DNA of 64,000 bases, taken from an uncultured Ignavibacteria bacterium (GTDB taxonomy: Bacteria > Zixibacteria > MSB-5A5 > CAIYYT01). Of this stretch, positions 16,696 to 64,000 are shown one piece after another. Position 1 is the first letter of the stretch. Each line of letters begins with the position of its first letter. The notes under the pieces are model-generated. The model saw only the letters and a program-made list of their open reading frames with translations. It had not been told where the DNA came from and did not search any database. Location of the stretch: positions 150,439 to 214,438 of the forward strand of contig CAYXUL010000001.1 of NCBI GenBank assembly GCA_964468475.1, given 5' to 3'. The position numbers and the translations under genes are program-made.

Positions 16696-19600
16696 CTACT
16701 GCAATTTCATCATTTTGCGGATTTCTAAATAGTGTGGGGTCTCGAGGCGATAGAAATAAACACCGGAAGATACCTGCCGCCCTGCCTGATCGGCGCCGTT
16801 CCAGATAACATACTTAAAGCCCGGCCCTTCATCCTTATCCACCAGCACTTTGACGGTCTGTCCGAGGATGTTATGGACGGTCAAGCGGACATGAGTGGCC
16901 TCCGGCAGAGTGTAGCTAATTCTGGTATCGGGATTGAAGGGATTCGGATGATTCTGCCACAGCGAGTACCCTTCCGGAAGCGTGGCATCACCCGAGAAAC
17001 TTTCTATTACCTGGATCAGCTTGTCCCCGACATCGCTTCCTGCCATACTACTGATAATTTGCCGCAGGCGCTTGAAATTCTCCTGGTGGGCAGAGAAATC
17101 ATAATCTACGGAGAGGGTCGGCGACGAATACTGATGTGTACTTCCCCAGTTTGGACCGATTGCCAGAACATCGAGCTCGTCGATAGTCCCATCACCGTTA
17201 GCATCCGCATAAGTTGCGCGAGGGTCATCCCACAACTCCGCCGGTTTCCCCTCCCAATTAGTGGTGGAGGTTGGGCGTGCCGGCCCCTGCATGCCGAAAA
17301 ACACGCCGATAGGCAACACATCAATCTCGTTCACGACACCATCGTTGTTGCAGTCGCCCGGATATACCGCCGGCCCGGTGATGAAAGTAAAGTCGTAGTC
17401 ATCTGTCGGTGAACCTTCGCCGACTCCGTTACCGTTACCATCAAGCGTATTACCAACCAGGTCGGCAACGGTCCCACTCACGGTGACATCCACGGTGTCA
17501 AACGGCGGGAAGTTGGCATCCGGAACAAACTGCCAATGGGTCTTATTGTCGACCGGACCGCCCTCCTGCAGCGTGCCGGCAACCAAGCCAGCCATTCTCT
17601 CGGAGAATACCTGCACCACGCCCGGCTGATCCGGTGTAGTACTCAGCAGCTCTGAGAAGTCGATATCAATGCGAGTATCGACCATTGCCCCGTCCGAGCC
17701 TGCGACCGGGGTTGTTGACTCCACGAGCGGAGGTTGTCGTTCAACACCGCCCACACCGGTAAGATCCACAGTCTTTTCCGGATCGCGCGGGTCATCGGTG
17801 GTTATCGTTAGGGTGCCGTCGAAGCGTGCCAGAGCATTTGGGTGAAACTCGACCTTCACCCAGAAAAATTGCCCCGGAATAATCGATGGTGAGGTGGTAG
17901 TCACCGGCACGAATTGACCGGTTGAACTCGCGACATTGAGCACCTTGAGGTTCAAACCGCTAAACAAAGCAGCCGTGTTCTGGACCTTAACCGAGTCAAC
18001 CTTAACCGAATCCACTACGACGGTATCGAAGTCTATTGAATTGGGCGTCAGCGCGCAGATCGTCGCTGAACTGGAATAGAAAGGGATCTCCAGAGTATCC
18101 ACCGGAAGGTTCGACGGTGGTTTGCCAATGATCCGCAGCAGGTAGTCACCAACGGCCAAATCCGGGGAAAGCTGCAGGGTCACGGAAGTGGTGTCGAGCG
18201 CTTTGATCGGATTGTTGGCGAATGTTGCCTGAACTGACCCACGGCGAGGATTAGCGGGCTCTATCCTTGCGGTAAGGTTAATGTTACGATTGTATGCCCC
18301 TATCAGCGTGTCCGCCCAGAAGGAGTAAACCTTCATTTGCGGGTCAAGCGAATCTGCACTGATAAAGTTGAGATCAAAACCGCTCACCTGTATCGGCTGG
18401 GAAGCGGAAACTACCACTCCTTCACCACAATCATTGATACCCATGGCAGTTGGCGTGAATATGCCGGGTTCCTGGTAAGTGTGATTAATCGTCAGCGCCG
18501 GGAAAGTGCTGACGCCCGTACTGCCGTCACCAAAGTCCCATTGAATTGAAGTCAACTGTTGCAGGCTTTGCGCCGTGAACTGCACGGGCAGCGGCGCGTC
18601 TCCCAATTGCGGCGAGACGGTGAAGCTAACGGTCGGTACCTCCTGAACGGAGATTGTCATGCTGTCAATATCTGAGCCACAGAAATTGCTTCGCTGCAGT
18701 ACAACATTATAACTGCCGGCAACAGCGAACTCATGCACGGGCTTTGCGGATGTAGAGGTTGTACCATCTCCGAAGTCCCAACGGTCGCTGGATGTGGTCA
18801 AACTATCTTCGTAGAAAAAGCTTACGGTCAACGGTACGCAACCGCTCTCGATATCGGCGAGCGGAGTCGCATCTGGGGGCGCCGTTACGATGATATCGGT
18901 AGAATCGGAAGACGTGTCGGTCGGACACACCAGTGTCATCCTGACCCGATAGGTTCCGGCATTCGCATACGAAGTTGTCGCCATCGTCGGCAGATCCGGA
19001 TTGTAAGTAATTGTATCCACTTCCCCGTTGCCATAATCCCAGACTGTGTAGTCGAAGAAACCATCTGACAGGTTTGTGAAGGCGACTATATCTCCCGTAC
19101 AAGGCGTCAGCGGCGTATAATCAAAATTCGGGACCAGGTTGCACTCGATGTACTCGTACGGTCCGATGTCGATTGCGGAGCCGGAGGTGCGCGGATAACC
19201 CGCATAGTCTATCGAGACAGATTCGAGCGGCAGTGCGGTACCCTTGTTGATCAGCGCTGAACCAGCCTTGAGCCTGAAATCGCCGTTGGCGGCATCTTCA
19301 AATTGCGGGTCGACGTTGAAAATATCATTGGACCCAAGAATACAATCGGGCGTCGTCGTAGGCGTGTTGCCGTAGTAGGCGTTCGTGAAGAAGTTGTAAC
19401 CATAATTGCTGCCACATTGAATAGCGTAATTTTGATTCGCCGCAAAAATATTGTTTTGCAGCAGCGGCTCAACGAACTGCGCCAAACCGATGGCGCCACC
19501 GACACTCTGAGATACATTCTGATAAAACAGGTTGTTCATGATATTCGAACCACTGTTGTCGGTATACAGGGCTGATCCGGAGAATCCGGAAGTATTGCTG

Positions 19601-20301
19601 CGAAATATGTTATTTTGCACGACCGAGTAAGCCTCAGTGGGTGAGCCGTAATTAAATGAGATTGCGCCGCCGGAAGAGTCCGCCAGATTGTTGAGGAACT
19701 CGTTGTTAAATATATAGGCGGCTGAAGACGCACAGAATATTGCGCCACCGTCCCGGCTCGCGTGGTTCCCAGAGAAGGAATTGTCGTGGATGTACGAAAG
19801 TGAATATGACATGTCAATTCCGCCACCGGAGGCACTCGCTCCCGGCGCGTTGTCGAAAATCCTGCAGTCCCTTATCTCCGGAGACGAGTAAACATCGGAG
19901 TTGCCCAGAATGCGAATGTTGGAGGGTGAGCCGCGTGTGATCGAGAATCCCTCCAGAACAGTCGTTGCTGTTATTCCTGCCTGAAAGGCAATGGGAACAC
20001 CAAGCAGTTGACCATTCAGGGTAGTCGAATCCGCACCGAGCTGGCTGGTGATGTAAACATCGCGATCCACCGAAACACCATCGATGTAGGTGCCCGGCTT
20101 GACCATAATTGTATCGATCGGAACTTTGGTGGATGCTATCGAGACCGCATAGCCGATGTGCTGCACCGGGCTAAGCTGGGTGCCGGAGTTGGCATCATTG
20201 CCGGTAGTGGCCACCCAGATGGTTCGCGCGGAAACAGCGCTGCTGAGGAATAGCAACGCTGCAACAATACGACCAAGAAAGATTTTCTGACTACCGCGCA
20301 A
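16696..20301 (-). CDS. Giant secreted protein: DUF1565/parallel beta-helix + 3 PKD + Ig-like (ASH / SbsA-like) + dockerin + T9SS-type CTD
   Basis: The 1201-aa ORF has a signal peptide. Its N-terminus is [22 protein letters not shown]. PbH1-like repeats are present (IHDNSF, IFNNEF, VQNNIF, IMNNLF, LQNNIF). Three PKD signatures are present ([23 protein letters not shown]). The dockerin and CTD are listed as separate features. Confidence 0.85.
   Translation of the reverse strand: [1201 protein letters not shown]
16699..16974 (-). other. T9SS type-A-like / FlgD-Ig-like C-terminal domain of the giant protein
   Basis: [40 protein letters not shown]...[22 protein letters not shown]. The M6 protease has the same architecture at its C-terminus. 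Confidence 0.7.
17143..17361 (-). other. Canonical two-repeat dockerin module inside the giant protein (aa 981-1053)
   Basis: [22 protein letters not shown] ... [22 protein letters not shown]: two EF-hand-like Ca-binding loops (DxNxDGxxxxxD), each followed by a helix. Confidence 0.7.
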
Positions 20302-21112
20302 CGGCTTCTACCTCCCCGTTCTCGATGTAAAGCTGCCCGGCAGCCGGCAAATGATTTCCCTGCCAGTCAACGAGTTGAATTGTGTCGGGGTTGATCGTAA
20401 TGTCGGTAGTACCCGAAGCTGTACCGGGTAACAAATCAAATGTTGCAACTATCCCGCCGCCGTCCACGCCTTGCTGTGTTTGGTTCCCCTGAATCGTCAA
20501 GCCGACGGCAACATAATTTCCCTCGTTCCGGGAAAAGAATATCGTCTGATTTTGCCCGAAAATTGAACCTTCAGTCACGTTTCCAACCTTCACAATTGTC
20601 GAATCAAATTCGATGCGAAAACTCGCCCCAAACAGCGCATTTACATTGTGGATTTCCACTCTCAGCTGATTCGTTTCCGAAGTGCTGGTCAATTGCTGGT
20701 AAAGTGGCGTCACCCGAATCATCGGCACCTGTGGCTCTAACTTGATATTAACTGTTGCTGAGCCGACCGGGGCGATCTGCGTTACTTCGCTGCCCTGATA
20801 CAACACAGTGCCCTCGATATCCATCGCCATCATCGTAAAGGTCAAATCCTGCCCGGTGGGAACCTCGACCTCAAATGTGGCAATGCCATCCACGAAAACT
20901 GTGTCTTTAACAATATCTTCAATACCGTCGCCGGTGATAGTCAGCCTTACATTCGTTACACTGCTGCCGAGATCTGCCTGCTTCAAAACTGCCTGCACCG
21001 TAAGTTGATTGTTCTGCCCCGTCGGCGAGTCGCTCAGAGAGCAGGAAGAGAGCAGCAATGCTGCTGCGAGCAAAGTTGCAGCAGTGACCAGGCGCGAGAT
21101 TCTTAGAACCAT
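20291..21112 (-). CDS. Lipoprotein with Ig-like N-domain and cohesin-like C-domain
   Basis: The lipobox is LLLSSC (Cys24). Residues 131-268 are LRVEIHNVNALFGASFRIEFDSTIVKVGNVTEGSIFGQN...GGGIVATFDLLPGTASGTTDITI, matching the cohesin pattern (v.v..v..l.g.qf.l.yD...l.v..v..G). The ORF overlaps both neighbours, by 10 nt and 11 nt. Confidence 0.6.
   Translation of the reverse strand: MVLRISRLVTAATLLAAALLLSSCSLSDSPTGQNNQLTVQAVLKQADLGSSVTNVRLTITGDGIEDIVKDTVFVDGIATFEVEVPTGQDLTFTMMAMDIEGTVLYQGSEVTQIAPVGSATVNIKLEPQVPMIRVTPLYQQLTSTSETNQLRVEIHNVNALFGASFRIEFDSTIVKVGNVTEGSIFGQNQTIFFSRNEGNYVAVGLTIQGNQTQQGVDGGGIVATFDLLPGTASGTTDITINPDTIQLVDWQGNHLPAAGQLYIENGEVEAVAR
20309..20722 (-). other. Cohesin-like domain
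   Basis: See the parent CDS. This is a fold-level call from the sequence pattern only. Confidence 0.5.
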
Positions 21113-22260: not shown

Positions 22261-22303
22261 AATCCTCTACTTCGCTGCAACTCCGTCGCGATTTTCCACT
22301 GCC

Positions 22304-23617: not shown

Positions 23618-23699
23618 ATAGCAATTGACTCTCTAATGACTCCTGTAAGTTTTTCAAATCCTCTGGAGCGATTGCTTTACGGCATTCGCTCCGCTTCGC

Positions 23700-24759: not shown

Positions 24760-26772
24760 TTACTTCTTTCGCAGCTTGAATTCGACAGTCTTTGCGCTGC
24801 TGATGTCGACGTACTGCGGTCCGCCCATAGTCTCATAATCGGGATGTTCGATCCAGATTTTATGCATTCCGTTCATTACATCCTGCCGAAACGGGGTGTC
24901 TCCGTCCTTGATTTTGACATTGTCGATGTACACCTGGGCCGGAACAAAATCATCTGGATTCGCCGGGACCAGCGATGTCACAGTCAGGCGGCTCTGTTTG
25001 TTGTTCGGCTTAAACGTCGCATTGACTGTATTGCCGCTCACTGAGACACGTTCGGTTAGACGTCCGACATCGGTAATAATACCGACTTCGTGGCTGCCTT
25101 CTTTAAGATCGTTAAAATTCACTGGCGTACCCTCATATTGTACGCTCTTACCGTCGAAATACACCTTAACTGGTTCAAATATCTTGTAATCCTCGACACT
25201 AACCGTAATCTCGCCGGTAGCCGGCGCTTCGGCGCTCGATAGCGTAAACGATTGCGATACAACGTCTTTATCTACTTTGACGCTCTGATTTATCGGCTTG
25301 GCGCCTTTGCCGGAAACATCGATCGTGTACTCACCCGGCTTCAACCCGGAGAAATTCAATTGTCCGCCGGTGAAGTCCTTGCTTTGTCCGTTAATCGACA
25401 CTGTAACCGGCGCGAAATCCTTATAATTCGCAATCGATACTGCAATCCCACCCGGAACCGCCTGCTGCTCCTTGACAACTTGACCCCACAGTTGCACTAC
25501 CGCCGGGGGAAAACGGTCATCAAACGTAAGATCAGGATTGGAAGAGTACAGCTTCTTTAGCTCCGTCTGCGCTTCTTCAAAGTTACCTTCCAACAGCTGC
25601 GCCGCTGCCTGAAACTGCGCGATCTCGAGCCGATCCTGATCGCTGGCTGATGCCGAGGTCTGTAAGTTTTGTAGCATAGGCAGCGCCTTGGAGTAATCTT
25701 CACTATTCACGTAACCAATCGCGACCTTGAGCGAGTCTGCAAAGGTCGTCGCCTCCACCGAGCCTTTTCCTCCGCCGGGACGTACTACCAGCCACAACAC
25801 CACCGCAATCACGACCAGCGCAACGGCGGCCAGACCAATCTTCTTCCACATGCCGCCACCGCCGATTGAAGGCGGCTCAACAACCAGCTCCGTCTTTTCC
25901 AGCTCCGGCATGACCTGCTTGACCGTCTTCTCGCCCGACAGATCGATACTAGCCAATGCATCGTTCATATCGGCAGCGGACTGAAATCGTCTGGCCGGAT
26001 CTTTCTGCAACGCTTTGAGAATTAGCGACTCCGCCCCGGGATCGACATCGCTGCGGAATGTACGCGGCGACGGCGGTGTCTTTTCGAGATGACCGGTCAT
26101 TATTTCATATTCTGAATCCGCCGCGAACGGTGTATGCCCTGTCAAAACCTGATAGAGAGTGATCCCCACAGAGTAGAGATCCGAACGATTATCGATCTTT
26201 TCGCGCTTGCCGCGAATCTGCTCAGGTGACATGTACAACAGCGAACCGGCGCCGGTGCCGGTGCGTGTCAGCTTGGCGCCATCGGTTACCATCGCAATGC
26301 CGAAATCGGTGATCTTGACGGTACCATTACTGGTGATCATGATATTCGAAGGTTTGATGTCGCGATGGATTATTCCGTGATCATGGGCGTAACCTATACC
26401 GCTCAGTAGCTGCCGGAAAATCGGAGCAGCCTCAGCGATGCTAAGATATTTCCTTTCGCGCAATATCGCATCGAGATTGGTGCCATCGATGTATTCCATC
26501 ACGATGAAGGTGACATCGTCGATTTTATCGTAGTCGGAAACTCGAACGATGTTCTGGTGCTCAAGCTGGCCCAGGGCGAGGGCTTCCCGCTCAAAGTAGG
26601 CGGAGAGCATTTCGTCCTTGGCTACTTGCGGATGAAGCACCTTTAGGGCGAATTGCTTTCGTAGTTTGACGTGTCGTGCGAGAAAAACCGAACCGAATCC
26701 CCCTTCACCGATCTTCTTAATGATCTCGTATTTACCAATCTTTTCTAATTCCATAGTCTCAGCCGGGTACAA
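24760..26772 (-). CDS. Transmembrane Ser/Thr protein kinase with periplasmic TPR-like and PEGA-like domains
   Basis: Hanks kinase motifs are present: IGEGGFGSV, ALKVL, HRDIKPSNIM, DFGIA, SPEQ. One TM helix follows (GLAAVALVVIAVVLWLVV). Then come 3 repeats of about 65 aa, such as GEYTIDVSGKGAKP and GMHKIWIEHPDYET. Confidence 0.9.
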   Translation of the reverse strand: MYPAETMELEKIGKYEIIKKIGEGGFGSVFLARHVKLRKQFALKVLHPQVAKDEMLSAYFEREALALGQLEHQNIVRVSDYDKIDDVTFIVMEYIDGTNLDAILRERKYLSIAEAAPIFRQLLSGIGYAHDHGIIHRDIKPSNIMITSNGTVKITDFGIAMVTDGAKLTRTGTGAGSLLYMSPEQIRGKREKIDNRSDLYSVGITLYQVLTGHTPFAADSEYEIMTGHLEKTPPSPRTFRSDVDPGAESLILKALQKDPARRFQSAADMNDALASIDLSGEKTVKQVMPELEKTELVVEPPSIGGGGMWKKIGLAAVALVVIAVVLWLVVRPGGGKGSVEATTFADSLKVAIGYVNSEDYSKALPMLQNLQTSASASDQDRLEIAQFQAAAQLLEGNFEEAQTELKKLYSSNPDLTFDDRFPPAVVQLWGQVVKEQQAVPGGIAVSIANYKDFAPVTVSINGQSKDFTGGQLNFSGLKPGEYTIDVSGKGAKPINQSVKVDKDVVSQSFTLSSAEAPATGEITVSVEDYKIFEPVKVYFDGKSVQYEGTPVNFNDLKEGSHEVGIITDVGRLTERVSVSGNTVNATFKPNNKQSRLTVTSLVPANPDDFVPAQVYIDNVKIKDGDTPFRQDVMNGMHKIWIEHPDYETMGGPQYVDISSAKTVEFKLRKK

Positions 26773-27598: not shown

Positions 27599-29686
27599 TT
27601 ATCCCTGGATTGCATTGCACGGCGGGTAGGGTCCGCCGCCGAAGATATAGTTTATCAGAAAAACCGCGTCGGCGATGCTGATGCTTCCATCGCAATTGGC
27701 ATCGCCCGCCTCCAGTGCTGGAGTCGGCGCGGGACCACCCCCAAAGATGTAGTTTACGAGGTAGACACCGTCGCTGATGCTAAGACTGCCGCTCTGGTCG
27801 CTGTCTCCGTGTTGCAGGAAGACCTCTACCGCCCCGGAGTCAGAATCGCTCACCCCGACAACTGAGCTCGCCTGCGCAGTCAGAGTTATCGAGTTGACTG
27901 AGCCGATTGCCGCACTTGGCGGCGCCGTGACCACTACATTAAACTGACCGGTCTGTCCTGAATTCAGTGACAGACTACCGCTCGTCGGGCTCACTGGCCA
28001 GCCAAGTTGATCCGCCACGGTAATGTCGAAGTCGTCAGGCTGCAGACCGACATTCTCCACACTAAACTTGACCGTCACTGTGGAATTGGAATAGACGCTA
28101 TCATCCGCTATAGAGCTGACATCGATCGCGTACGCGGGACTGGAAACGTAATCGGCGCCGTAGCTGTAATTACGATTGTCGAGCGTCTGGCTGACGTTGG
28201 CGATCACCATGGCGAGCTCATCTTTGTCACCAACCGGGCTCAGGGTAAACTCGCCCGCCCCACTCCCGTCCAGAGGCATCTGATATTCTGTATAGTCGTT
28301 TGTCGACGTGTTACGGGCGAGCATGGTAACGATCCAGCTGACGCCGTCTTCACCGTCAAAGTCGACCGTGAACGAAAATGCATCTGAGGGGATATTGAAC
28401 ACTATGTAATTCGCACCCATCCCGTCCGGATACTTCCCCGTGACCGGCCCCAGGCCTGAAACCGGATAAGTCGAATGAGTGCGGGTGATGGCGATCAGCG
28501 GATAATTCTCAGCTTCCTCATAGTGATTGCCGTCGTTGCGCGAGGCTGTGACATAATTCCACGCCCAGAACTCCGCCACTTCCTGCGGGACAGTGGCTCC
28601 CTTGGCAGCGAGCACCGTGCTGAATGCCGGGTAGGGGCTGGTTGTAATCAATTGATTCCAAATATCGGGAAATGTTTGCGCACCGAAATTCTCCTGCAGA
28701 TACTTGCCCCAGATAAATGCTGAATACATATGCCCATTAGTGATGGAGTGCAGGGACCAATCGGGATCATTGAAAAGGGTTGGAAGATAATTGTAGTTGT
28801 CGTTGACTACGTCGTAAACATAATCCTCCATCCAGGTCGACGAGGTTTCCATGAACCACACCTGCTCGCCGACGTCATAAGCGAACTGAATCGCATGATA
28901 GAATTCGTGCGCAACGGTGACTTTCGCCGCTCCCTTCTGATTTCCATCAGGGTCGGTGTTGGGCGGGAACCCAATGAAATTGCGATGCACAGATATGTAA
29001 CTGTAGGCATCGTTCCACGGCTCCGGACCAGCGCCCTCAGGCTGAGTGTAGCCATAGTACGGCATTTCCTCGGTATAGATATCGTAGAGGCTATCGCCTC
29101 CGAGAGTACCGTCGGCGGGCGGCGTCAGCTGGCCAAGTCCGATAATCTCGGTTCTATAGGAACTGTCTGCGTAATCGGCAATCCACTGCACGAAGTCGGG
29201 AATTCCATCAGCCGGATCGACATCGGTACTCGGCACCGCGTTGGAACCGGATAGGTCATAGTGTATGCGAAAATGTCCTTCCGGGCTGACAATACTGTAC
29301 GTCTGGCTCGGCCGTGTCAGCATAGATGACAATGCGTCACGTGTTGAACCATCAAGCTTATTCCACTGCTGGCGCACCTCCAACAGCACGGGCGTTGCAC
29401 AACGGCCCTGATCTATCACATTCGATTGATACTCGACCGGCAGCGCACCGGGCCGCTTGATCGATTCCACTGAGTAGAGGAGTCGCTGCTGTTCAGTCAG
29501 CTTGCCCTGGTCGTAGGCTTCCCGGATTAGAGTCAGTGAGGATTTCCCGTTCGCAGCGCGTGCCGGCTGCAATCCGAGCGTTACAAGCAACGCTGCAAGC
29601 GCAACGATAATCGAGTGGTAGTGGTATCGCATAGCTGAGCTTTCTAACCTGTCAGAGTCGATTCTTGATTGATGTCGAGCAGTCAC
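27599..29686 (-). CDS. Secreted HExxH putative zinc metalloprotease with C-terminal twin dockerin-like module
   Basis: VTVAHEFYHAIQFAYDVGEQVWFMETSSTWMEDYVY contains the HExxH motif. The probable true start is Met19 (29632), giving the signal peptide MRYHYHSIIVALAALLVTLGLQPARA. The C-terminal module spans 27602-27808. Confidence 0.75.
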   Translation of the reverse strand: MTARHQSRIDSDRLESSAMRYHYHSIIVALAALLVTLGLQPARAANGKSSLTLIREAYDQGKLTEQQRLLYSVESIKRPGALPVEYQSNVIDQGRCATPVLLEVRQQWNKLDGSTRDALSSMLTRPSQTYSIVSPEGHFRIHYDLSGSNAVPSTDVDPADGIPDFVQWIADYADSSYRTEIIGLGQLTPPADGTLGGDSLYDIYTEEMPYYGYTQPEGAGPEPWNDAYSYISVHRNFIGFPPNTDPDGNQKGAAKVTVAHEFYHAIQFAYDVGEQVWFMETSSTWMEDYVYDVVNDNYNYLPTLFNDPDWSLHSITNGHMYSAFIWGKYLQENFGAQTFPDIWNQLITTSPYPAFSTVLAAKGATVPQEVAEFWAWNYVTASRNDGNHYEEAENYPLIAITRTHSTYPVSGLGPVTGKYPDGMGANYIVFNIPSDAFSFTVDFDGEDGVSWIVTMLARNTSTNDYTEYQMPLDGSGAGEFTLSPVGDKDELAMVIANVSQTLDNRNYSYGADYVSSPAYAIDVSSIADDSVYSNSTVTVKFSVENVGLQPDDFDITVADQLGWPVSPTSGSLSLNSGQTGQFNVVVTAPPSAAIGSVNSITLTAQASSVVGVSDSDSGAVEVFLQHGDSDQSGSLSISDGVYLVNYIFGGGPAPTPALEAGDANCDGSISIADAVFLINYIFGGGPYPPCNAIQG

Positions 29687-29692
29687 TGCTTC

Positions 29693-31447
29693 CTAATTGC
29701 ATGGTGGCGGACCTGACGCGAAGATGTAGTTGATTATGTAAACGACATCGCTGACGGAATAAGTCCCGCTGCAATCGACGTCCATTGTTTCAATCGGGTT
29801 GGGGGCCGGACCTCCTCCGAAGATGTAGTTGATCCCGTAAACCGCATCCGAGATTGAGACATTATCGTTGTCATCGAGGTCTCCACGAGTACGGAAATGG
29901 AAATTATAAGTGTAGTTGAATTGAGTTCCATATTGCGAGCCGATGCTGGGAATATATATGATACGCAGCACATCCTGAAGATTGGCGATGCTCACTCGCT
30001 GTTTGCCGTCATCCAGCGGGCTTATAGTCTTTTCATCGTACGTACCATTGCCATAATCCACTATATACGAAAGTCCCCAGACAGCGGTATTGAGCCCGGT
30101 GAAATCGAAAGTGAGTATGCCGCTGTAACCGGTGAGATTGTCGAAAATGATGTAGTTGGAGGCAAGCGGCTGGGGTGGAAGTGTTGAACTGTTATTGGAG
30201 TCAGGAACCACATCGTGGTGCGCCATTATCGCTACTTGTGGATAGGCGGCGCCCTCCTCGAAGTGCAGGGTGTCGGCCCGGGAACCAGTGAAATAATTCC
30301 AGCGGGCGAATTCCCCAAATGCTTTATCGAGTGACGAGCCGTGCGCGGCCAGGTTGGTTGACCACGCCGAGATCGCAGAATTGTAGCGGCAATCATTCCA
30401 CATATCGTGGAGAATGCCAATTCCGTATTTTTCGATCAGGAACTTGGGCCAGATGAAAGAAGCGTACTCATGGCCGTTGTCAGATTGCAGCCCCGTTTCC
30501 GGCGCGTCGAAAAAGAACGGAAGGTAGTTGTAGTTGTCATTTACCGCAGGAAAGACGACTTCCTCCATGCAGGTGGAAGTTTCTTCCATGAAGTACGGTG
30601 CTTCGTAGACATCGTAGGCAAACTGAATCGCGTGATGGAATTCGTGGGCAATTGTCACTTTCAAGGCACCGTAAACGTCTCCATCCGGATCATCATTGGG
30701 AGGAAAACCGGGCGAGAAACGGCTGTGAACTTTTGCAAATGAGCTGTAATCGTTCCAATCAGCCGGGCCCGCCGTCTCCGGAGTGGTGAAGCCGTAATAG
30801 GGTATTACCTGGAAGTAGATATCGTACAGGCCAAGGCCACCACCCTGAGTAAGGTCGGATACCGGTTCGTAATAACCGAGGTTGTTGACATACTCATCCC
30901 ACGCACTGTCGGCGGCCATCATGGCAAAGTCAATGAAGTCGGGAATTCCATTGCTATTGAGGTCAGCTGATGGCACCGAGTCCTGGCCCGAAGTATCAAA
31001 GTGAAGACGGAAATGCCCCCCCGGCGTATCAATGTAAAATTGCGTTGACGGACGCGTAACCAATGCCTCACGGTAGCTGCCATACTTCTCGGGATTGCCT
31101 TCAATTACGGCCAGAGCCTCTGTCATAAGGTCGGTGCCGCACTTGCCGTAGACCATCTCCGACGACTGGTACTCGGTCGGTAGATCAGCTTGGTTGGTTG
31201 CTGACAGCGCCTTGTAAATAGTTCCGAGATCCCTGGATAGCTGCCCTGATGCCACCGCGGCGTCAATCTTCTGTAGTGAATTCTGCGCCGACATCAATGG
31301 ACTTGCACACAAGCAGAGAGCAATGGTTGCCGTGAAGATAAATATGAGACCAGGTTTTGTGTTCACAATCTTTACGAAGTATCGAGGTTCACCGGACCCT
31401 AAACTACGGTACAATTGAAATTTAGGGGCTTTACCCAAAACCGTCAA
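29693..31447 (-). CDS. Secreted HExxH putative zinc metalloprotease, tandem paralog, with twin dockerin-like module
   Basis: VTIAHEFHHAIQFAYDVYEAPYFMEETSTCMEEVVF. The domain order matches the neighbour, and the two genes are 6 nt apart. The C-terminal module spans 29696-29884. The start may be GTG 31366. Confidence 0.75.
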   Translation of the reverse strand: MTVLGKAPKFQLYRSLGSGEPRYFVKIVNTKPGLIFIFTATIALCLCASPLMSAQNSLQKIDAAVASGQLSRDLGTIYKALSATNQADLPTEYQSSEMVYGKCGTDLMTEALAVIEGNPEKYGSYREALVTRPSTQFYIDTPGGHFRLHFDTSGQDSVPSADLNSNGIPDFIDFAMMAADSAWDEYVNNLGYYEPVSDLTQGGGLGLYDIYFQVIPYYGFTTPETAGPADWNDYSSFAKVHSRFSPGFPPNDDPDGDVYGALKVTIAHEFHHAIQFAYDVYEAPYFMEETSTCMEEVVFPAVNDNYNYLPFFFDAPETGLQSDNGHEYASFIWPKFLIEKYGIGILHDMWNDCRYNSAISAWSTNLAAHGSSLDKAFGEFARWNYFTGSRADTLHFEEGAAYPQVAIMAHHDVVPDSNNSSTLPPQPLASNYIIFDNLTGYSGILTFDFTGLNTAVWGLSYIVDYGNGTYDEKTISPLDDGKQRVSIANLQDVLRIIYIPSIGSQYGTQFNYTYNFHFRTRGDLDDNDNVSISDAVYGINYIFGGGPAPNPIETMDVDCSGTYSVSDVVYIINYIFASGPPPCN

Positions 31448-38137: not shown

Positions 38138-39883
38138 ATGCGAAGGAGACTACAACAAATGCGACAGCTCAGAGAAACCGACAGAAACTCGCTTGCCATA
38201 ACGATTGCTTTCGTTTTTTGCTTATCGCTCGCACTCAATGCAGCCGTGCCGCCCCTGCTAAGTTACCAGGGACGACTTCAGGACAGTGGCGGCAATCCAC
38301 TGGACGGCACATATGGGATGACATTTACAATCTACGATGCACCGACCGGTGGCAGTATTCTCTGGAGCGAAAGCCAGATCGATGTAGCCGTATCAGGCGG
38401 CTTGTTCGCTACGCAATTGGGAAAAGTTAACCCGCTGCCTGCTTCAGTCTTTGAGACCGAAGATGTTTATCTCGGGATCACAGTTGGAGCCGATCCGGAA
38501 ATGAGCCCGCGCCAGCGGATCGTAACCAGCGCGTACTCGGATCGCGTGCAGACTGTCGACGGTGCCGAAGGTGGCAGGATTGACGGAAACCTGCGGCTCA
38601 CTTATCCGGCGGCGCCGACCGGACCGCCCCTGACAGCCCTGCATCTTGAAACGGAAGATATTGGTTTGACTTCGGGTGCCCTGGAGCAGGATCGCGTTGT
38701 CGTTGAGGCTGCCGACGCTGTGTTAGGGCTCTATAGCAACAATACAGGTGTAACCGGGTCGGGGCTGGCGTTCGGTGAAATCGATGGTGGTAAGTTTTCG
38801 GACAAGTGGGGCATCATTCGTGAAACCTCCGGCTCCGGTAGTGCTCTGGTACTTACTTATGGTAGCAAAGCAAGCATTTCCGCAAATTCTGCGGCTCTCT
38901 GGATAAATTCCAATCGGGAGGTCGGCGTTGGTACCACAGCTCCGGATGCAACCCTGAATATTCAAGGCGGGAGATGGAATTTAGATTCGGGTGAGGGCGA
39001 TTTCAAAGTTGGCAATGATACCTACCGCTTCAAAATCGGTGTTGCCACCGGTGGCGGCGGCGCCGGGATCACCAGGATGCGATCGCAGGGTGGAGCGAAT
39101 GCGCTCGTGCTGGGAGCAGATTCAAGTGACGTGCTCACGGTAAGAAGTAATGGGGTTGCCGTCAACAGCCTTGATCCCACGAACCCCCTGACAGTCTATG
39201 GCTTCGGTACCTCTTCCGGAGCATTCAGCGGTGAAGCCAACGTTGTCACCCGATTCCGTAACAGCGCTCCGGGGGAGTATACGGTCGTTTCACTTGATGC
39301 ACCGTCGGATCAGGCTTCAAGACTCGTATTTTCCAGTAACAATGTCGGTAAAGCTGGATTAACTTACTACAATTTCATCGACAGATTCCTGATTGGTTTC
39401 GACGGATGGTACGAGATTCGCATCGATGAATCCAACCACAATGTCGGCATTGGCCGCAATCCAGACGCCAGCTATCAGCTCGCTGTCGCGGGAGATATGC
39501 GAGCGACCGATATCTGCTACAGCGGCACAATCGGCGCCTGCTCCGACCGTCGTTTCAAGAAGAACATCACTCCCCTTACCGGATCGTTGGATAAGGTCAT
39601 GAGCCTCCGTCCGGTCAATTACGAGTGGCGGCGCGAGGAATTTCCTGATCGCGGCTTCGGCGAAGGCAATAAGATCGGGCTCATCGCTCAGGAAGTCGAA
39701 GATATCGTCCCCGAAGTCGTCAAGAAGCAAGGTGACGGCTACTATTCGGTGGACTATGGACGGCTAACTCCTATATTGATTGGAGCTGTTCAGGAACAGC
39801 AAGCGACAATCAAAGAATTGAAGTCTCAGCTTGCTCAGGCGCTTAAACGTCTCGACGACGTTGAGAGTAAGCTCAGACAATAA
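38138..39883 (+). CDS. Secreted tail-fibre-like protein 1 with C-terminal S74 intramolecular-chaperone domain
   Basis: A signal peptide is present. The shared N-domain is SYQGRLQDSGGNPLDGTYGMTFTIYDAPTGGSILWSE...DPEMSPRQRIVTSAYS. The C-terminus is CSDRRFKKNITPL...IGLIAQEVEDIVPEVV...YSVDYGRLTPILIGAVQEQ, i.e. the SDxRxK autocleavage motif plus chaperone. An alternative start is ATG 38159, downstream of AAGGAG. Confidence 0.8.
   Translation: MRRRLQQMRQLRETDRNSLAITIAFVFCLSLALNAAVPPLLSYQGRLQDSGGNPLDGTYGMTFTIYDAPTGGSILWSESQIDVAVSGGLFATQLGKVNPLPASVFETEDVYLGITVGADPEMSPRQRIVTSAYSDRVQTVDGAEGGRIDGNLRLTYPAAPTGPPLTALHLETEDIGLTSGALEQDRVVVEAADAVLGLYSNNTGVTGSGLAFGEIDGGKFSDKWGIIRETSGSGSALVLTYGSKASISANSAALWINSNREVGVGTTAPDATLNIQGGRWNLDSGEGDFKVGNDTYRFKIGVATGGGGAGITRMRSQGGANALVLGADSSDVLTVRSNGVAVNSLDPTNPLTVYGFGTSSGAFSGEANVVTRFRNSAPGEYTVVSLDAPSDQASRLVFSSNNVGKAGLTYYNFIDRFLIGFDGWYEIRIDESNHNVGIGRNPDASYQLAVAGDMRATDICYSGTIGACSDRRFKKNITPLTGSLDKVMSLRPVNYEWRREEFPDRGFGEGNKIGLIAQEVEDIVPEVVKKQGDGYYSVDYGRLTPILIGAVQEQQATIKELKSQLAQALKRLDDVESKLRQ
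39542..39880 (+). other. Peptidase S74-type intramolecular chaperone autoprocessing domain (fibre 1)
   Basis: S-D-R-R-F-K-K-N-I followed by GLIAQEVE...VDY..L, as in endosialidase and tail-spike chaperone domains. Confidence 0.7.
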
Positions 39884-39902
39884 GAAAGGTGGATATCGTC
39901 CA

Positions 39903-41309
39903 ATGCAATTCTTAAGAAACAAGCCTTACTTTGCCCTGCTATCCATTCTGTTCGTTGCAACGACTTTCAGCAGCGTCATAGCTTCAACCCCGAGTGCGAT
40001 GAACTACCAGGGATACCTCACTGATTCGGGTGGCAAGCCGATCGACGGCAATTTTAACCTTACTTTTAGCATCTATTCCGAGGAAAACGGCGGCACTCTG
40101 TTCTGGCAGGAGACACAAAACGTTGATGTCAGTGATGGATTGTTTGCAGTCATCCTTGGAGACAACACGCCTTTGACAAGTGCTGTCTTCACCACCGAAA
40201 AGGTATACCTCGGCATAGCAGTCGACTCCGATCCGGAGATGTCACCTCGCCAGCGGATCACGACGGCAGCTTTCTCGCATCGCGTGACTACCATCGACGG
40301 TGCTCAGGGTGGCTCGGTTTCAGGGGATGTTGAGGTCCTCGGCAATTTCACCAACGGCAACTATGCATTTCTCAATCAGCTCCGTTTGGGAAGTCCTTCC
40401 CTCTCTGGGAAACTTGACCTGTTTCAGGATGGTTCCAGCAATCCGATTGCTGAACTTCAACCGCACCCAACAGCAGGTGGCGGCGAGTTCAGGATCTATG
40501 ATCCATCCCACGGCCAGTCCGTTTACGCTTCACATGATGTCAGCGCCGGCGGCGGCGGTTTTCTCAGCGTCTACCGTAACGCGGCTTCGACCGTTGGTTT
40601 TGTAGTCGATGGTAACTACAATGGTACCACCTCGCCCAGGGTTATTATTCAGGATGCCAACAGGGCGATGATCTTCGATACTGGCGTTGATGGCGACTCG
40701 GCGGTTATGCTCCCGTACGGGACAATCAATTCAATTGAAACTGCAAATGAGGCCGGTGTGTCGGAGGCGGCGGAATACATCGATCTCACGCTGGATGACA
40801 CGTTTTCGACCCCTCAGACTCTGATATCTCAGTCTATAGACTGTCCCCGATCTGGCTACGTGTTGGCGTTAGGATCCGCGAGCGTTTACTTTCACAATAG
40901 TAGTGGCATCTGGGCAGACGTTGATTTTGGCTTGAGCACAAATTCGAGCATACTGCAGACATACAAATACACTTACAGGCACCATTCACCGATTGCTACC
41001 GGCGAGGAGCAGATACCGATTACGATTCACCGAGTCTTTCAGGTGAGTGAAGGACAAAAAGTGATCAATTTCCTGGCAAAGACCCAGGGCCTCATAGATG
41101 TGACAATCCTGAATGCACAGATAAGCCTGATTTATCTCCCTACCTGGTATGGTCCACGCACACCCGGGGCGCAAGACTCTCAGCAGGATATCGATCAGCT
41201 GGTAGACGAACGTGTGAAGGAAGAAACCGCGCGACTGGAAAAGCAATTCGAACGGCGTTTGCGAGAAGTTGAGACGGCAATCCAGGAGCAGCAGGGAGCG
41301 ACAGACTAA
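39903..41309 (+). CDS. Secreted tail-fibre-like protein 2 (shared N-domain, no S74 domain, C-terminal coiled coil)
   Basis: The ATG at 39903 follows AAGGTGGA. The sequence is MQFLRNKPYFALLSILFVATTFSSVIA/STPSAMNYQGYLTDSGGKPIDGNFNLTFSIYSEENGGTLFWQE...DPEMSPRQRITTAAFS. The C-terminus is IDQLVDERVKEETARLEKQFERRLREVETAIQEQQ. Confidence 0.75.
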   Translation: MQFLRNKPYFALLSILFVATTFSSVIASTPSAMNYQGYLTDSGGKPIDGNFNLTFSIYSEENGGTLFWQETQNVDVSDGLFAVILGDNTPLTSAVFTTEKVYLGIAVDSDPEMSPRQRITTAAFSHRVTTIDGAQGGSVSGDVEVLGNFTNGNYAFLNQLRLGSPSLSGKLDLFQDGSSNPIAELQPHPTAGGGEFRIYDPSHGQSVYASHDVSAGGGGFLSVYRNAASTVGFVVDGNYNGTTSPRVIIQDANRAMIFDTGVDGDSAVMLPYGTINSIETANEAGVSEAAEYIDLTLDDTFSTPQTLISQSIDCPRSGYVLALGSASVYFHNSSGIWADVDFGLSTNSSILQTYKYTYRHHSPIATGEEQIPITIHRVFQVSEGQKVINFLAKTQGLIDVTILNAQISLIYLPTWYGPRTPGAQDSQQDIDQLVDERVKEETARLEKQFERRLREVETAIQEQQGATD

Positions 41310-41403
41310 GATACACTTCCCGGACACAGGCGCGATCGTAAGATGGTTGACAAAAATATAACTATAATATGGACTAATAGAATCTATTTGGAGGGCTATA
41401 AGA

Positions 41404-42963
41404 ATGTATTTGGTAAAACAAAATCAAAGGTGCATTTCCGGCTTTGCGCTGCTGGCGCTAACCCTGTTTTCTTTTCCCGTTTTTGCCACCCCACAGGGAA
41501 TTAGTTATCAGGGGCGGCTCACTGACTCGGGTGGCAGCCCGCTCACAGGCACATACAATCTGAACTTTGGTATATACACTACCCCGAGCGGGGGGGCTCC
41601 GCAGTGGAGTGAGGACCACGTCAGCGTAAATGTTGATGGCGGCATATTCACGGTGATCCTGGGTACAATGACCCCTTTTCCGGCAGGTCTTTTTCAAGAC
41701 GGCGATTTGTTCCTGGGGATCAGCATTGACGGTGGCGCGGAAGCAAACCCGCGGCAACAGCTTCTCTCAGTTCCTTTCGCTCAAACCGTCGAAACGATTG
41801 ACGGCAGTTCCGGAGGAACGATTCAGGGTCAGGTTTCGATCCCTGATGGTCTGATTGTGGGAATTGGTGACATGGTGGGCGACAGCGCCGGCGTGGCAAT
41901 CGGGCACTCAAATAGTGCCAGCGGGGTGTATTCATCGGTAGCGGGCGGGGAAGAAAATGAGGCGACCGGGCGTAACTCGTTCGTTGGCAGTGGAATTCAA
42001 AATTCGGCAAGCGGCGTAAACTCAGCCCTGTTGGGTGGCAATCAAAACAGAACTTCCGGTGAGCTTTCGTTTATCGGTGGGGGTTCCCATGTACAGGCGG
42101 ACGGCCTGGAATCAGTGATTGCAGGTGGATTCTATAATGGAGCGCAAGGTGAACAAGCGGCAGTCCTCGGGGGTTCCTTTAACCATGCTGATGGGGTGGT
42201 GTCAGCAATTGGAGGGGGAAGTACCAATCAGATAAGTGCTGACTACTCCGTGATTTCAGGCGGAATCTTCAATGAATGCCGTGATCAATACGGCGCGGTC
42301 GTGGGAGGTGGAGAGAACATCAATTATGGGTCCTACAGCACCATCCTCGGCGGCTTCGGTTGTCAAATACGAGATACAACCTCAATCCAGTCAAGCTACT
42401 CGATGGCATTCGGGCACAACGTTGTACTTGCAGGTGTCACCGATGTCGTAGGACTTTTTGATGGTGAAAACTCAGGCCTGTTGGCCATCAATCACGATAC
42501 CGATGACGGTCCGATTTCCTACCCGATAGAGGTCGGCACCAACTCCGCCAACGGCAACGGCGCTCACCTGACCGCAGGCGGCGTCTGGACAAACGCTTCC
42601 AGCAAGGAGTTTAAGGAAAACTACACTCCCCTCGACCGGCAGGAGTTGTTTGAGAAGATCAAGTCTCTGAATATCGAGGGTTGGAATTACCGCAGTAGTG
42701 AAGAATACCATATCGGCCCTTACGCCGAAGAGTTCGTGAAGGCCTTCGACGTGGGCACGATCGACGAACAGACCGGAGAGCGAGTTAACACCTACCTCGC
42801 CGCCGGTGATGTAGCGGGCGTCGCATTGGCTGGAGTCAAAGGCCTGCTGGCCGAAAACGCTCGCCTGAAGGAGCAGCTGGCGCTAAACAGAAGCCAGACT
42901 GAAGATCTCCGGAAACGAGTAAAAAAGCTGGAGCAAGCTCTTGAAATACTTGCGAAAAATTAA
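41404..42963 (+). CDS. Secreted tail-fibre-like protein 3: shared N-domain + ~14-residue beta-roll repeats + S74 chaperone domain
   Basis: The shared N-domain is ISYQGRLTDSGGSPLTGTYNLNFGIYTTPSGGAPQWSE. Repeats of the form SxxxGGxxNxAxG run from about 41900 to 42360. The C-terminus is ASSKEFKENYTPLDRQELFEKIKSLNIEGWNY...LAAGDVAGVALAGVKGLLAEN. Confidence 0.8.
   Translation: MYLVKQNQRCISGFALLALTLFSFPVFATPQGISYQGRLTDSGGSPLTGTYNLNFGIYTTPSGGAPQWSEDHVSVNVDGGIFTVILGTMTPFPAGLFQDGDLFLGISIDGGAEANPRQQLLSVPFAQTVETIDGSSGGTIQGQVSIPDGLIVGIGDMVGDSAGVAIGHSNSASGVYSSVAGGEENEATGRNSFVGSGIQNSASGVNSALLGGNQNRTSGELSFIGGGSHVQADGLESVIAGGFYNGAQGEQAAVLGGSFNHADGVVSAIGGGSTNQISADYSVISGGIFNECRDQYGAVVGGGENINYGSYSTILGGFGCQIRDTTSIQSSYSMAFGHNVVLAGVTDVVGLFDGENSGLLAINHDTDDGPISYPIEVGTNSANGNGAHLTAGGVWTNASSKEFKENYTPLDRQELFEKIKSLNIEGWNYRSSEEYHIGPYAEEFVKAFDVGTIDEQTGERVNTYLAAGDVAGVALAGVKGLLAENARLKEQLALNRSQTEDLRKRVKKLEQALEILAKN
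42598..42960 (+). other. S74-type intramolecular chaperone domain (fibre 3, variant SSKEFK cleavage motif)
   Basis: SSKEFKEN replaces SDRRFKKN. The downstream chaperone pattern is conserved. Confidence 0.6.
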
Positions 42964-43003
42964 GCGTGAACTATATTTACCTATAATCAAGGAGATCCCA
43001 CAC

Positions 43004-43651
43004 ATGAAAGTTACTCGCCTGCCTCTCATAGCGGCGTTTTCCTTTTCCGTTCTCTTGATCCTGTCTGCTTCGGTAACTGCTGCGAAGAAGGACAAACTCG
43101 CGGCTAAGGAAAAGAAGGCGACGACTACTCAAGCAGAAGCTCACAAGAGTTCGTCGTCCGTCAAAGCTGCACCTCGTACTTCGGCAACTAATACCGGCGC
43201 TACCAATTTGCCCGGAACCCCGACCGGGCCCATAGATGGCAGCAATCTGCTGCCAAGCTCACCTCAGACCGGCGAGCAAATCAACTGGGATGTCATCTCC
43301 TCGGGGGGCGGCCCGATGACTTCGACTAATTTCATGCTGGACGGGACAATTGGTCAGACGGTAGCAGGTCCTTCCAGTTCAACGAACTTCGTGCTCAACA
43401 GCGGCTACTGGCAGAATTTTGGTACCGGCCCGAGTTACGTCTGCGGAGACGCGGACGGTGACGGCCAGGTTATCATTTCAGACGCGGTATATTTAATAAA
43501 CTACATCTTCGCCGGCGGCCCGGCCCCCGATCCGCTCGTCAGCGGCGATGTCGATTGTGACGGCGTGCCAATCATTTCTGACGCCGTTTATATCGTCAAC
43601 TACATCTTTGCCGGCGGCCCGGCGCCGTGCGCAGCGTGCCCGCAGACGTAA
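43004..43651 (+). CDS. Small secreted protein with twin dockerin-like C-terminal module
   Basis: AAGGAG lies 9 nt upstream of ATG 43004. The signal peptide is MKVTRLPLIAAFSFSVLLILSASVTA. A low-complexity linker follows, then STNFMLDGTIGQTVAGPSSSTNFVLNSGYWQNF. The twin module spans 43445-43648. Confidence 0.75.
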   Translation: MKVTRLPLIAAFSFSVLLILSASVTAAKKDKLAAKEKKATTTQAEAHKSSSSVKAAPRTSATNTGATNLPGTPTGPIDGSNLLPSSPQTGEQINWDVISSGGGPMTSTNFMLDGTIGQTVAGPSSSTNFVLNSGYWQNFGTGPSYVCGDADGDGQVIISDAVYLINYIFAGGPAPDPLVSGDVDCDGVPIISDAVYIVNYIFAGGPAPCAACPQT

Positions 43652-62414: not shown

Positions 62415-64000
62415 TTAGAACAAGCAGGGAGCCGGGCCGCCTCCGAATAGATAATTAAGCAAGTAGACGCAATCGCCTATTGAGATTGTCCGGTCGCAGT
62501 TCACATCTCCGGTAATGAATATTGGCACAGGAGCAGGACCGCCACCGAAAATGTAGTTCAGAATATAGACACAATCCCCAATCGATATATATCCACTACC
62601 GTCGGCATCACCGAAGGTGTACACCCAGACCACGACTGGAAGCGTGACTGGCGAGTTGGAGGCTTCAGCGCTGGTGAAGATCACTTCACCGTTATTTCTC
62701 CCGAGGGGTAAGCCCACCGCATCGGCGCGGATTTGCACTCCAACAGTCGTTGAGGTGTCATCCGGGGTGGGAGTCAGCCACGGCACAGTGGCACTGGCCT
62801 GAAATGGCACACAACCGCCATTCTCGTTGTAAACCGTAACAGTCTGGAAAGCACTACCGAGCTGAGTGTATTTGAATATGTACACCAGCGAATCGGCGTT
62901 GAGATGCAGGATCTTAGTTGACGGTGTCGGCTGAACGGTAAACGTTACCGGAATCTTCGTCGGGGGATTCAAAGAAACATCGGAAGCAACAGTAATCGTG
63001 TCCATGTAGCTTCCCGGAGATAGCCCGGTTACGTCGACGCTCACGGCCACGGATGTCGCATTTGTACCGGCAGCCTGACTTACACTCAGCCACGGCGCAG
63101 TGAAAGTAATTGTCCACGGTACCGGCGGGGTCGGCTGGGCGGTCGAAATTGCGATGTTCTTTGGTTGAACTCCCGGGTAGCTGCCACATTCGACTTCGGA
63201 GAACGACATGGAGCTGGGAGTCACGTACATGATTTGCGGCACTTCCATTTTCCAGAAGGTAACCGGAACCCGCACCGGTGAATTGATCGCTGACCCGGAA
63301 GTAATCTCCAGCGTGTCAAAGTTCAGCCCAAAACCCACCAGGCTGCGGTCAAACGATAGTGTGACCGAGCTCGGGAAACCTTGTACCGCTGAGCCGGTAT
63401 CGGAATCAACGCTGAGCCAGGCACTGTTCTTGGTTAGTGTCCAACTCAGTACACCTCCGCCGTTATTCTCAATAGTCAGAACGCGGTCATAGGGATTTAC
63501 GCTTCCTGAGCCGATGGCGTAGATGCTGTCAGGAATCGGATTGATTACCGGGAATGCCGAGAAAACCTCAAACACGACCTGCACATATTGCGGATTGTTC
63601 GATGCCGTTGGGTCACTTATCTCGATCGATGTCGAGTATACACCCGCTGTAAGGCCGGTATTGTCAATGCTCACCGTGACAGTCGATGGCGCAGTGCCCG
63701 AGGTCATGTCCAGGCTAAGCCATGAAACCGATTCCGTAGCGGTCCAGTTGAGTGTGGTGCCAGCAGCACCATTTGTGATGTCGAAACTCTGGTCGGGAGG
63801 ATTTGCGTCATCCTGCAGGCCCTGGAAATGGAGGCTATCGGGATTGAGCACAATCAATGGCGGCGGCACGGTCATTACCAGCGTAACCACGAATTCCTGT
63901 GGAGAATTCGTTGCACCTGCCGCCGAAACTTCAACGCTGTCGGTATAGGTACCGGCTCCCAATCCAGTCGTGTTGACTGCCACTACGACGGTGCTGGGGG
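62415..64000 (-). CDS. Secreted protein with at least 5 BACON-like Ig repeats and C-terminal twin dockerin-like module; N-terminus outside the window
   Basis: Repeats: LNWTATESVSWLSLDMTSGTAPSTVTVSIDNTGLTAGVY, LSWTLTKNSAWLSVDSDTGS, VPWTITFTAPWLSVSQAAGTNATSVAVSVDVTGLSPGSY, and others. The frame stays open to position 64000, and the first residues (..VVVAVNTTGLGAGTY) are the tail of another repeat. The twin module spans 62418-62612. Confidence 0.8.
   Translation of the reverse strand, partial: PSTVVVAVNTTGLGAGTYTDSVEVSAAGATNSPQEFVVTLVMTVPPPLIVLNPDSLHFQGLQDDANPPDQSFDITNGAAGTTLNWTATESVSWLSLDMTSGTAPSTVTVSIDNTGLTAGVYSTSIEISDPTASNNPQYVQVVFEVFSAFPVINPIPDSIYAIGSGSVNPYDRVLTIENNGGGVLSWTLTKNSAWLSVDSDTGSAVQGFPSSVTLSFDRSLVGFGLNFDTLEITSGSAINSPVRVPVTFWKMEVPQIMYVTPSSMSFSEVECGSYPGVQPKNIAISTAQPTPPVPWTITFTAPWLSVSQAAGTNATSVAVSVDVTGLSPGSYMDTITVASDVSLNPPTKIPVTFTVQPTPSTKILHLNADSLVYIFKYTQLGSAFQTVTVYNENGGCVPFQASATVPWLTPTPDDTSTTVGVQIRADAVGLPLGRNNGEVIFTSAEASNSPVTLPVVVWVYTFGDADGSGYISIGDCVYILNYIFGGGPAPVPIFITGDVNCDRTISIGDCVYLLNYLFGGGPAPCLF

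Follow-up and report, generated by a model that had tools for sequence, protein, structure and literature searches.

The nearest described relatives of the element considered here are the type I dockerins, such as those of Acetivibrio cellulolyticus ScaB (4UYP/4UYQ) and Clostridium thermocellum Doc48S (2MTE), in which a duplicated F-hand (calcium-binding loop-helix) repeat with DxDxDG...D loops forms a three-helix domain of two-fold symmetry at the C-terminus of secreted proteins, cohesins being present in the same genomes. In an intramolecular clasp of the dockerin, the segment after helix 3 is in contact with residues -1 to -3, which precede the conserved Gly; mutating this clasp costs up to 20 °C of melting temperature and makes cohesin binding about ten-fold weaker (Slutzki et al. 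2013, PMC3821032). Cohesin-dockerin systems also exist outside cellulosomes, as represented by the Archaeoglobus fulgidus cohesin 2XDH and by the 'scaffoldin-containing' non-cellulolytic bacteria (PMC11557425). Here we describe a stretch of 64,000 nucleotides (the window) from contig CAYXUL010000001.1 of an uncultured bacterium of Zixibacteria type, in which four open reading frames (ORFs) share a C-terminal twin-repeat module of about 64 aa. The module has the repeat architecture, loops, terminal placement and symmetry of type I dockerins, as well as their fold (root-mean-square deviation (rmsd) 1.5-2.0 Å), and cohesins are again found in the same genomes. We read it as a type I dockerin with disulfide staples that docks its cargo on cohesins, and assign this reading, taken as a whole, a probability of about 0.7.

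The module is a genuine type I dockerin and not a new fold or tag. A profile hidden Markov model (HMM) built from the four window copies and run against all stop-to-stop segments in six frames matches these four copies alone (E 5e-35 to 8e-37), with an E of about 5 for the best remaining segment, which rejects chance similarity. The initial annotation had reported the same twin module in four proteins, and its coordinates and peptides for all of them agree with the translation. The two repeats have nearly the same consensus (26/30 positions identical), and two of the four differences are cysteine positions. As read from the sequence, calcium-ligand positions 1, 3, 5 and 12 follow D-x-D/N-x-D/S/N-...-D in all eight loops, and these conserved ligand residues suggest that the module binds calcium. 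The Pfam model PF00404 (Dockerin_1; curated gathering cut-off 22.9 bits) matches all four carriers, three of them above the cut-off (27.2, 27.9 and 23.7 bits) and the fourth below it at 17.5 bits; the third module scanned by itself reaches 26.9 bits. The same model matches 59/59 sampled related carriers (best E 6e-35), while an NCBIfam scan returned no model for the module itself. An earlier distinction between this module and the supposedly canonical dockerin of a giant protein in the window thus fails, since the module passes the PF00404 cut-off and it is the giant protein's copy that is the more divergent.

Structural comparison leads to the same family. The module profile aligns end to end with the solved type I dockerin 4uyq_B (E 2e-5), a linker shorter by 3 residues being the only length difference. 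The AlphaFold model, based on 123 sequences, has a mean predicted local distance difference test score (pLDDT) of 88, with 89-92 for the tail and N-terminal blocks, and a predicted template modelling score (pTM) of 0.78; its helices, at module residues 11-23, 31-34 and 44-56, make up the three-helix fold and start at loop position 10. In a Foldseek search of the PDB the top 31 matches are all dockerins, mostly at rmsd 1.5-2.4 Å over 55-72 columns and with target-normalised template modelling (TM) scores of 0.7-0.8 (up to 0.80); 4uyp_B superposes at 1.5 Å over 64 columns. The initial annotation took NYIFxGGPAP to stand in place of the usual helix. The model puts NYIF within helices 1 and 3, with GGPxP as a cap and linker after the helix, and the fold is that of a canonical three-helix dockerin. 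A pair of EF-hands with adjacent loops was considered and rejected: there is no entering helix, and the sole EF-hand match, 1scm_B, superposes with a TM of 0.23 and an rmsd of 10.7 Å.

The Cys that fills loop position 5 (GDxDC) is confined to repeat 2 in all four window modules, as the initial annotation had it, and so is another Cys after GGPxP. The loop residue, Cys38, is at position 4 when the second calcium loop is numbered as in EF-hands. The tail Cys had been placed 0-5 residues from the stop codon; its terminal location stands, the range does not, the stop lying 1, 2, 5 and 6 residues past it. Module 3 bears four cysteines, namely Cys(-1) (43442-43444), Cys38 (43556-43558), Cys62 (43628-43630) and Cys65 (43637-43639). 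Its extra pair, which the earlier description lacked, consists of the Cys just before Gly1 (YVC-GDADG) and Cys65, three residues past the tail Cys (PCAAC). In module 4 the usual Ala at two symmetric helix positions, 14 and 47, is replaced by a further Cys, so that each repeat reads GDCVY there.

These cysteines come and go together. Across a broad set of 492 modules, the loop-2 Cys and a Cys at F55+7 are both present in 162, the loop Cys alone in 30, the tail Cys alone in 43 and neither in 257 (odds ratio 32). Cysteine classes in this set are discrete and mostly even-numbered: the largest combine Cys(-1), Cys38, F55+7 and F55+10 (71 modules) or loop-2 position 7, F55+9 and F55+11 (58), followed by modules without Cys (54), with Cys(-1) and F55+8 (48) and with Cys38 and F55+7 (37). 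Close relatives, by which we mean the best 80 loci of at least 573 confirmed module stretches obtained from one genome per GTDB species, lie in 14 metagenome-assembled genome (MAG) assemblies. Among 103 of their modules, the four-Cys pattern seen in window protein 3 occurs in 80 and the two-Cys pattern, as in the remaining window modules, in 11; the N-terminal and second tail cysteines occur both in 83 (about 80%), the first only in 6, the second only in 1 and neither in 13 (odds ratio 180). Both cysteines of the two-Cys pattern are kept in 118/119 orthologues of the protease carriers (35-100% identity), the tail Cys varying from F55+7 to F55+8. The conserved pair had been taken earlier to suggest an intramodule disulfide, and its conservation and co-variation are consistent with that suggestion.

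A wider co-variation analysis, by mutual information with average product correction (MI-APC), covered 717 modules, comprising the window copies, the retrieved proteins and loci L001-L080. The pair 38/F55+7 ranks fourth, and the other top pairs are either cysteine pairs or symmetric i/i+33 pairs. The strongest co-varying columns are of this latter kind (23/56, 18/51, 21/54, 10/43, 14/47 and 12/45), from which it follows that the two dockerin halves evolve in concert. The symmetric columns include EF-hand positions 11, 17 and 22, which are known specificity positions of clostridial dockerins, and their co-variation fits a conserved dual-binding surface. Other cysteine schemes occur in multi-dockerin proteins with 6-13 tandem copies (P0121, P0123, P0127, P0128 and P0129), which have either a Cys before Gly1 with another 8 residues past helix 3, or a Cys at loop-2 position 7 with a C-x-C tail. 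These schemes suggest repeated, independent stapling of the tail.

Both cysteine pairs of the four-Cys form probably make disulfides, co-variation of this kind being a signature of disulfides and not proof of them. Disulfides are expected in proteins exported through the oxidising periplasm. Cys38 would bond to the Cys 7-8 residues past helix 3 and so pin the free C-terminal tail to the calcium loop of the same repeat; in repeat 1 the corresponding segment runs on into repeat 2, which makes such a staple unnecessary. In the four-Cys form a second disulfide, from Cys(-1) to Cys65, would act as a covalent clasp joining the N-terminal end to the C-terminal one, since the pair stands at the clasp positions and, by two-fold pseudo-symmetry, replaces the peptide bond between repeats 1 and 2. 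That the cysteines instead serve metal binding, an intermolecular disulfide to a partner or a C-terminal modification appears highly improbable to us. The tail Cys comes within 1-6 residues of the C-terminus, the geometry of a bond inside the module rests on an estimate, and the number of cysteines is odd in 154 of 444 modules (even in 290), all of which would suit such roles. Set against them are the gain and loss of cysteines in pairs, the several alternative two-by-two patterns, the homologue P0033, in which the pair has moved to repeat 1 (positions 5 and 29) and is absent from repeat 2, and the window cohesin, which has no Cys besides that of its lipobox.

The most likely function of the module is calcium-dependent docking to cohesins, for which the window offers a candidate partner; docking is likely because a cohesin is encoded in the window and because a cohesin domain is fused to 49/269 retrieved carriers. 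The profile of the fused domain matches only cohesins in the PDB (4dh2_A, E 3.6e-6). The initial annotation had noted a cohesin-like lipoprotein, and this protein does exceed the Pfam Cohesin cut-off; its AlphaFold model is of lower confidence (pLDDT 62.8), and its top Foldseek matches are solved cohesins (TM 0.63-0.67). It resembles the carrier-fused cohesin type weakly (hhalign probability 28%, E 6e-4; HMM E 1e-4). Through two nearly identical F-hand repeats at their extreme C-terminus, Sec-exported proteases, BACON-repeat proteins and other cargo would be docked to cohesin-bearing proteins of the envelope, a dual-binding mode being probable. In related MAGs four small proteins made up of a signal peptide, one cohesin and one terminal dockerin adjoin other dockerin genes; their cohesin domain has conserved cysteines near both ends (GCP...DCG), and they may link head to tail.

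Alternatively, the module might be a calcium-binding stabilising or adhesive domain for a non-protein ligand (an envelope glycan, an exopolysaccharide or a mineral surface), its co-occurrence with cohesins being incidental. Many non-cellulosomal dockerins are without a known partner, and the cargo includes the adhesin-typical domains BACON, PKD, SBBP and TSP_3. This alternative is nonetheless improbable in our judgement, given the symmetric co-variation at positions that touch cohesin in solved complexes, the cohesin fusions and neighbouring cohesin genes, and the superposition of the fold on cohesin-bound dockerins.

The loci of the close relatives contain 114 modules; of the 113 that are full-length, 112 end no more than 8 residues before the stop codon. 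Many internal or tandem copies occur in the wider family (nine in P0121, for example), and strict C-terminality is therefore a property of this subfamily only; the restriction to C-termini claimed earlier holds for the close relatives and not beyond them. The terminal position leads to a further explanation, in which the module is mainly an export or sorting signal for a dedicated machinery akin to the type IX secretion system (T9SS), with the dockerin fold co-opted and no cohesin bound. Besides the near-invariant position, such a role would account for the presence of several carriers in one genome, for their very diverse cargo, for the extreme sequence conservation among paralogues and for the imbalance within the window, where one cohesin, of a rare family, stands against five dockerins. 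Yet cellulosomal dockerins are also typically C-terminal and numerous, and the internal and tandem copies of the wider family do not suit a terminal signal, nor do the cohesin domains fused to 18% of sampled carriers. T9SS-type C-terminal domains are already in use on other proteins of the genome, and no hydrophobic or sortase-like motif follows the module. A T9SS C-terminal domain as such was rejected, Por_Secre_tail/TIGR04183 being absent from the module and from the four carriers in Pfam and NCBIfam scans and the module model being helical. We consider a sorting role quite unlikely, and the protein-sorting tag proposed in the initial annotation gains no specific support beyond what any C-terminal dockerin would give it.

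Several points weigh against a stapled, cohesin-docking dockerin. The canonical dockerin is antiparallel, with the tail emerging from helix 3 close to loop 1, and a bond to loop 2 therefore obliges GGPxP to run back along helix 3, which by a geometric estimate is only borderline possible. The co-variation statistics ignore phylogeny, and the profile with which sequences were collected includes the cysteines, so that sampling is biased. The 43 and 30 modules of the broad set with one of the two cysteines only do not conform to pairing. The cohesin lipoprotein was rejected as a family-wide partner, its family being rare and conserved beside the giant protein, and is kept as a local candidate. 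Finally, Sec-exported dockerin proteins would have to cross the outer membrane, and the whole system may be periplasmic. As to the first point, the aromatic-x3-GGP of the module may be likened, as a lead only, to the Trp-cage or PP-fold cap, which does fold back. The Trp-cage segment W-L-K-D-G-G-P-S-S resembles Y-I-F-x-G-G-P-x-P of the module in having an aromatic residue four positions before a GGP turn and, after the turn, prolines able to fold back against the helix, whereas the GGP segment of the dockerin is the linker or tail of a larger domain.

The subfamily consists of very abundant, short-linker, cysteine-paired dockerins in a diderm candidate phylum, of a kind already known and already annotated. 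A word-indexed search gave 432 matches, the named ones all from Candidatus Zixiibacteriota and some titled 'dockerin type I domain-containing protein'. A profile search of 1.84 billion cluster representatives gave 33,089 at E ≤1e-3 and 10,464 at E ≤1e-10. A scan of public MAGs with an HMM of the module had been proposed in the initial annotation; the type proved to be very common in Zixibacteria, with several carriers in a single MAG. The titles of the 14 assemblies with close relatives read Zixibacteria or Zixiibacteriota (5), 'uncultured Ignavibacteria' (6), 'uncultured bacterium' (2) and 'bacterium' (1), and a single assembly holds up to 16 of the best 80 loci. Diverse, non-cellulolytic domains make up the cargo of the 59 carriers sampled: SBBP, TSP_3, PKD, beta-helix, peptidases M14/S8/M23/M43 and BACON. 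A cellulosome component was ruled out on the grounds that the cargo is not made up of plant-cell-wall enzymes and that the window cohesin protein has a single cohesin. The best 120 homologues of the protease cargo are all orthologues of about 673 aa, and 119/120 share the same dockerin; phylum-identifying names among them are Zixibacteria save for two third-party annotation (TPA) records titled Terriglobales and Candidatus Acidoferrum. Because of this uniformity the search for a choice-of-anchor contrast, that is, other C-terminal tags on the protease cargo in other phyla, yielded none.

The features of the window are collected in the table, together with the small cohesin/dockerin proteins of related MAGs.

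Table. Dockerin modules, their carriers, cohesins and neighbouring envelope genes (window coordinates unless a locus is named).
Feature	Position	Strand	Basis or remark
Dockerin module 1, two-Cys pattern, C-terminus of MXAN_6640-type metalloprotease 1	27602..27808	-	Pfam 27.2 bits, HMMs
Dockerin module 2, two-Cys pattern, C-terminus of paralogous metalloprotease 2	29696..29884	-	Pfam 27.9 bits, HMMs
Dockerin module 3 of small secreted protein	43442..43648 (including preceding Cys codon)	+	translation; Pfam; AlphaFold; Foldseek
Dockerin module 4 of BACON-repeat protein, two-Cys pattern plus Cys14 and Cys47	62418..62612	-	module HMM E 4e-36; Pfam 17.5 bits
Carrier 1, 677-aa HExxH metalloprotease: signal peptide, VWA7-type Ig domain, dockerin	27599..29632 (ORF to 29686)	-	Pfam/NCBIfam scans
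Carrier 2, paralogous metalloprotease	29693..31447	-	ORF as listed; true start probably downstream of 31447
Carrier 3, small secreted protein	42941..43651	+	likely start ATG 43004 (MKVTRLPL...)
Carrier 4, BACON_2-repeat protein with four BACON_2 stretches	62415..64000	-	runs past window end; frame open to 63998
Cohesin lipoprotein, 273 aa, lipobox LLSS-C; only cohesin in window; candidate partner	20291..21112	-	Pfam Cohesin 33.6 bits (cut-off 24.1)
Divergent internal dockerin of giant PKD/beta-helix protein	17161..17361	-	Pfam Dockerin_1 30.9 bits, aa 981-1047
TPR and CsgG-like proteins	23700-24707, 22304-23617	-	in 16696-24707 apparent operon
Beta-barrel-like protein ending ...AWF	21103-22260	-	in 16696-24707 apparent operon
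M6 (InhA-like) peptidase with Por_Secre_tail T9SS sorting domain	14241-15986	+	Pfam
Small proteins of about 250-280 aa: signal peptide, one cohesin, one terminal dockerin (same subtype)	L007 3363-4100; L009 72-893; L026 1064-1882; L069 865-1716 (-)		related MAGs

The four carriers were at first thought to be otherwise unrelated. Carriers 1 and 2 are neighbouring paralogues (41% identity over 484 aa, E 5e-105), both HExxH metalloproteases of the MXAN_6640 family, and the modules are accordingly borne by three types of cargo. The ATG start of carrier 1 at 29632 is supported by the database protein P0270, which has 677 aa and is 100% identical to the 608-aa query over its full length. The ORF of carrier 3 overlaps the end of a tail-fibre-like gene (41404-42963, +). 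This gene is the last of three tail-fibre-like genes in a row before carrier 3 (38138-43651 with the latter, +), two of which, at 38138-39883 and 41404-42963, carry a Peptidase_S74 intramolecular-chaperone domain; the small dockerin protein may serve as a tether of the tail-fibre-like proteins.

The gene for the cohesin lipoprotein overlaps the start of the gene for the giant 1201-aa PKD/beta-helix protein (16696-20301). The latter protein ends in a T9SS-type C-terminal domain, with FlgD_ig at aa 1128-1185, and its dockerin begins with GDCNNDG, with a Cys at position 3 of repeat 1, and has a linker of about 30 residues between its repeats, which places it in another subtype. The order of cohesin followed by giant protein is conserved at loci L081 and L084, in a 57%-identical homologue, and the family of the window cohesin is a rare one, with 5 homologues found among proteins and 2 loci among metagenome contigs. 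Given its rarity and synteny, this cohesin more likely partners the giant protein than serves the terminal dockerins as a general receptor, and the giant protein's dockerin is probably its cognate partner. Both genes belong to an apparent operon for envelope proteins (16696-24707, -), directly upstream of which lies a Ser/Thr protein kinase with a C-terminal PEGA domain (24760-26772, -). The sorting domain of the M6 peptidase indicates that, for its secreted proteases, the genome employs T9SS C-terminal domains as well as terminal dockerins.

Could the stapled dockerin have a more general role? One may conceive of the cysteine-stapled symmetric dockerin as a general surface-display tag of Zixibacteria, assembled through the small cohesin/dockerin connectors into a non-cellulosomal cohesin-dockerin lattice on or under the diderm outer membrane. 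This would be a display system parallel to T9SS anchoring, in which the staples would stabilise the dockerin independently of calcium or in addition to it. We offer this extension tentatively and regard it as unlikely.

The cysteine pattern looks undescribed; the dockerin identity itself is already annotated publicly. Our literature search found no paper with both 'dockerin' and 'Zixibacteria', and none of the papers listed by a broader search on related candidate phyla mentions dockerin. A natural disulfide within a bacterial dockerin was likewise not found in the literature searched, a 2025 cellulosome review citing only an engineered intermolecular cohesin-dockerin disulfide. If the staples are real, they would make this the first natural disulfide-locked bacterial dockerin in that literature, and would be relevant to designer cellulosomes and protein-assembly tools, which are limited by dockerin instability and calcium dependence. 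They would also indicate that an uncultivated diderm phylum has a large cohesin-dockerin network, as yet unstudied, for the display of proteases and adhesin-like proteins rather than cellulases, and would raise the question of how, or whether, such proteins reach the cell surface. If they are not, what remains is an ordinary, correctly annotated dockerin domain.

Compared with the known systems, the module combines a familiar architecture with several departures from it. The T9SS sorting domain (Por_Secre_tail, PF18962) is likewise shared at the C-terminus by many secreted proteins of the Fibrobacterota-Chlorobiota-Bacteroidota (FCB) group, and occurs on other proteins of the window; it is a beta-sandwich, whereas the module is a three-helix calcium-binding domain of unrelated sequence. 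The non-cellulosomal cohesin-dockerin systems resemble the present one in their non-carbohydrate-active cargo, in having few cohesins and in including proteins that bear both cohesin and dockerin. The module family differs from them in its abundance (more than 10,000 clusters at E ≤1e-10 and several carriers per MAG), in its cysteine-paired subtype and in its small connectors. With respect to the clostridial dockerins, the linker is rich in proline and shorter by about 3 residues (NYIF-x-GG-P-x-P, with GGPxP after each helix), the repeat symmetry is near-perfect, one or two cysteine pairs are conserved, the host is a diderm of a candidate phylum, and the cargo consists of proteases, BACON, PKD and SBBP proteins rather than plant-cell-wall enzymes. 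The closest parallel remains the dockerin clasp, a contact that stabilises the calcium-bound fold and the cohesin-binding surface and whose place matches that of Cys(-1) and the tail; the known clasps are non-covalent, relying on aromatic-Pro stacking or salt bridges (PMC3821032), while the module would have a covalent pair in this position and an extra staple to loop 2.

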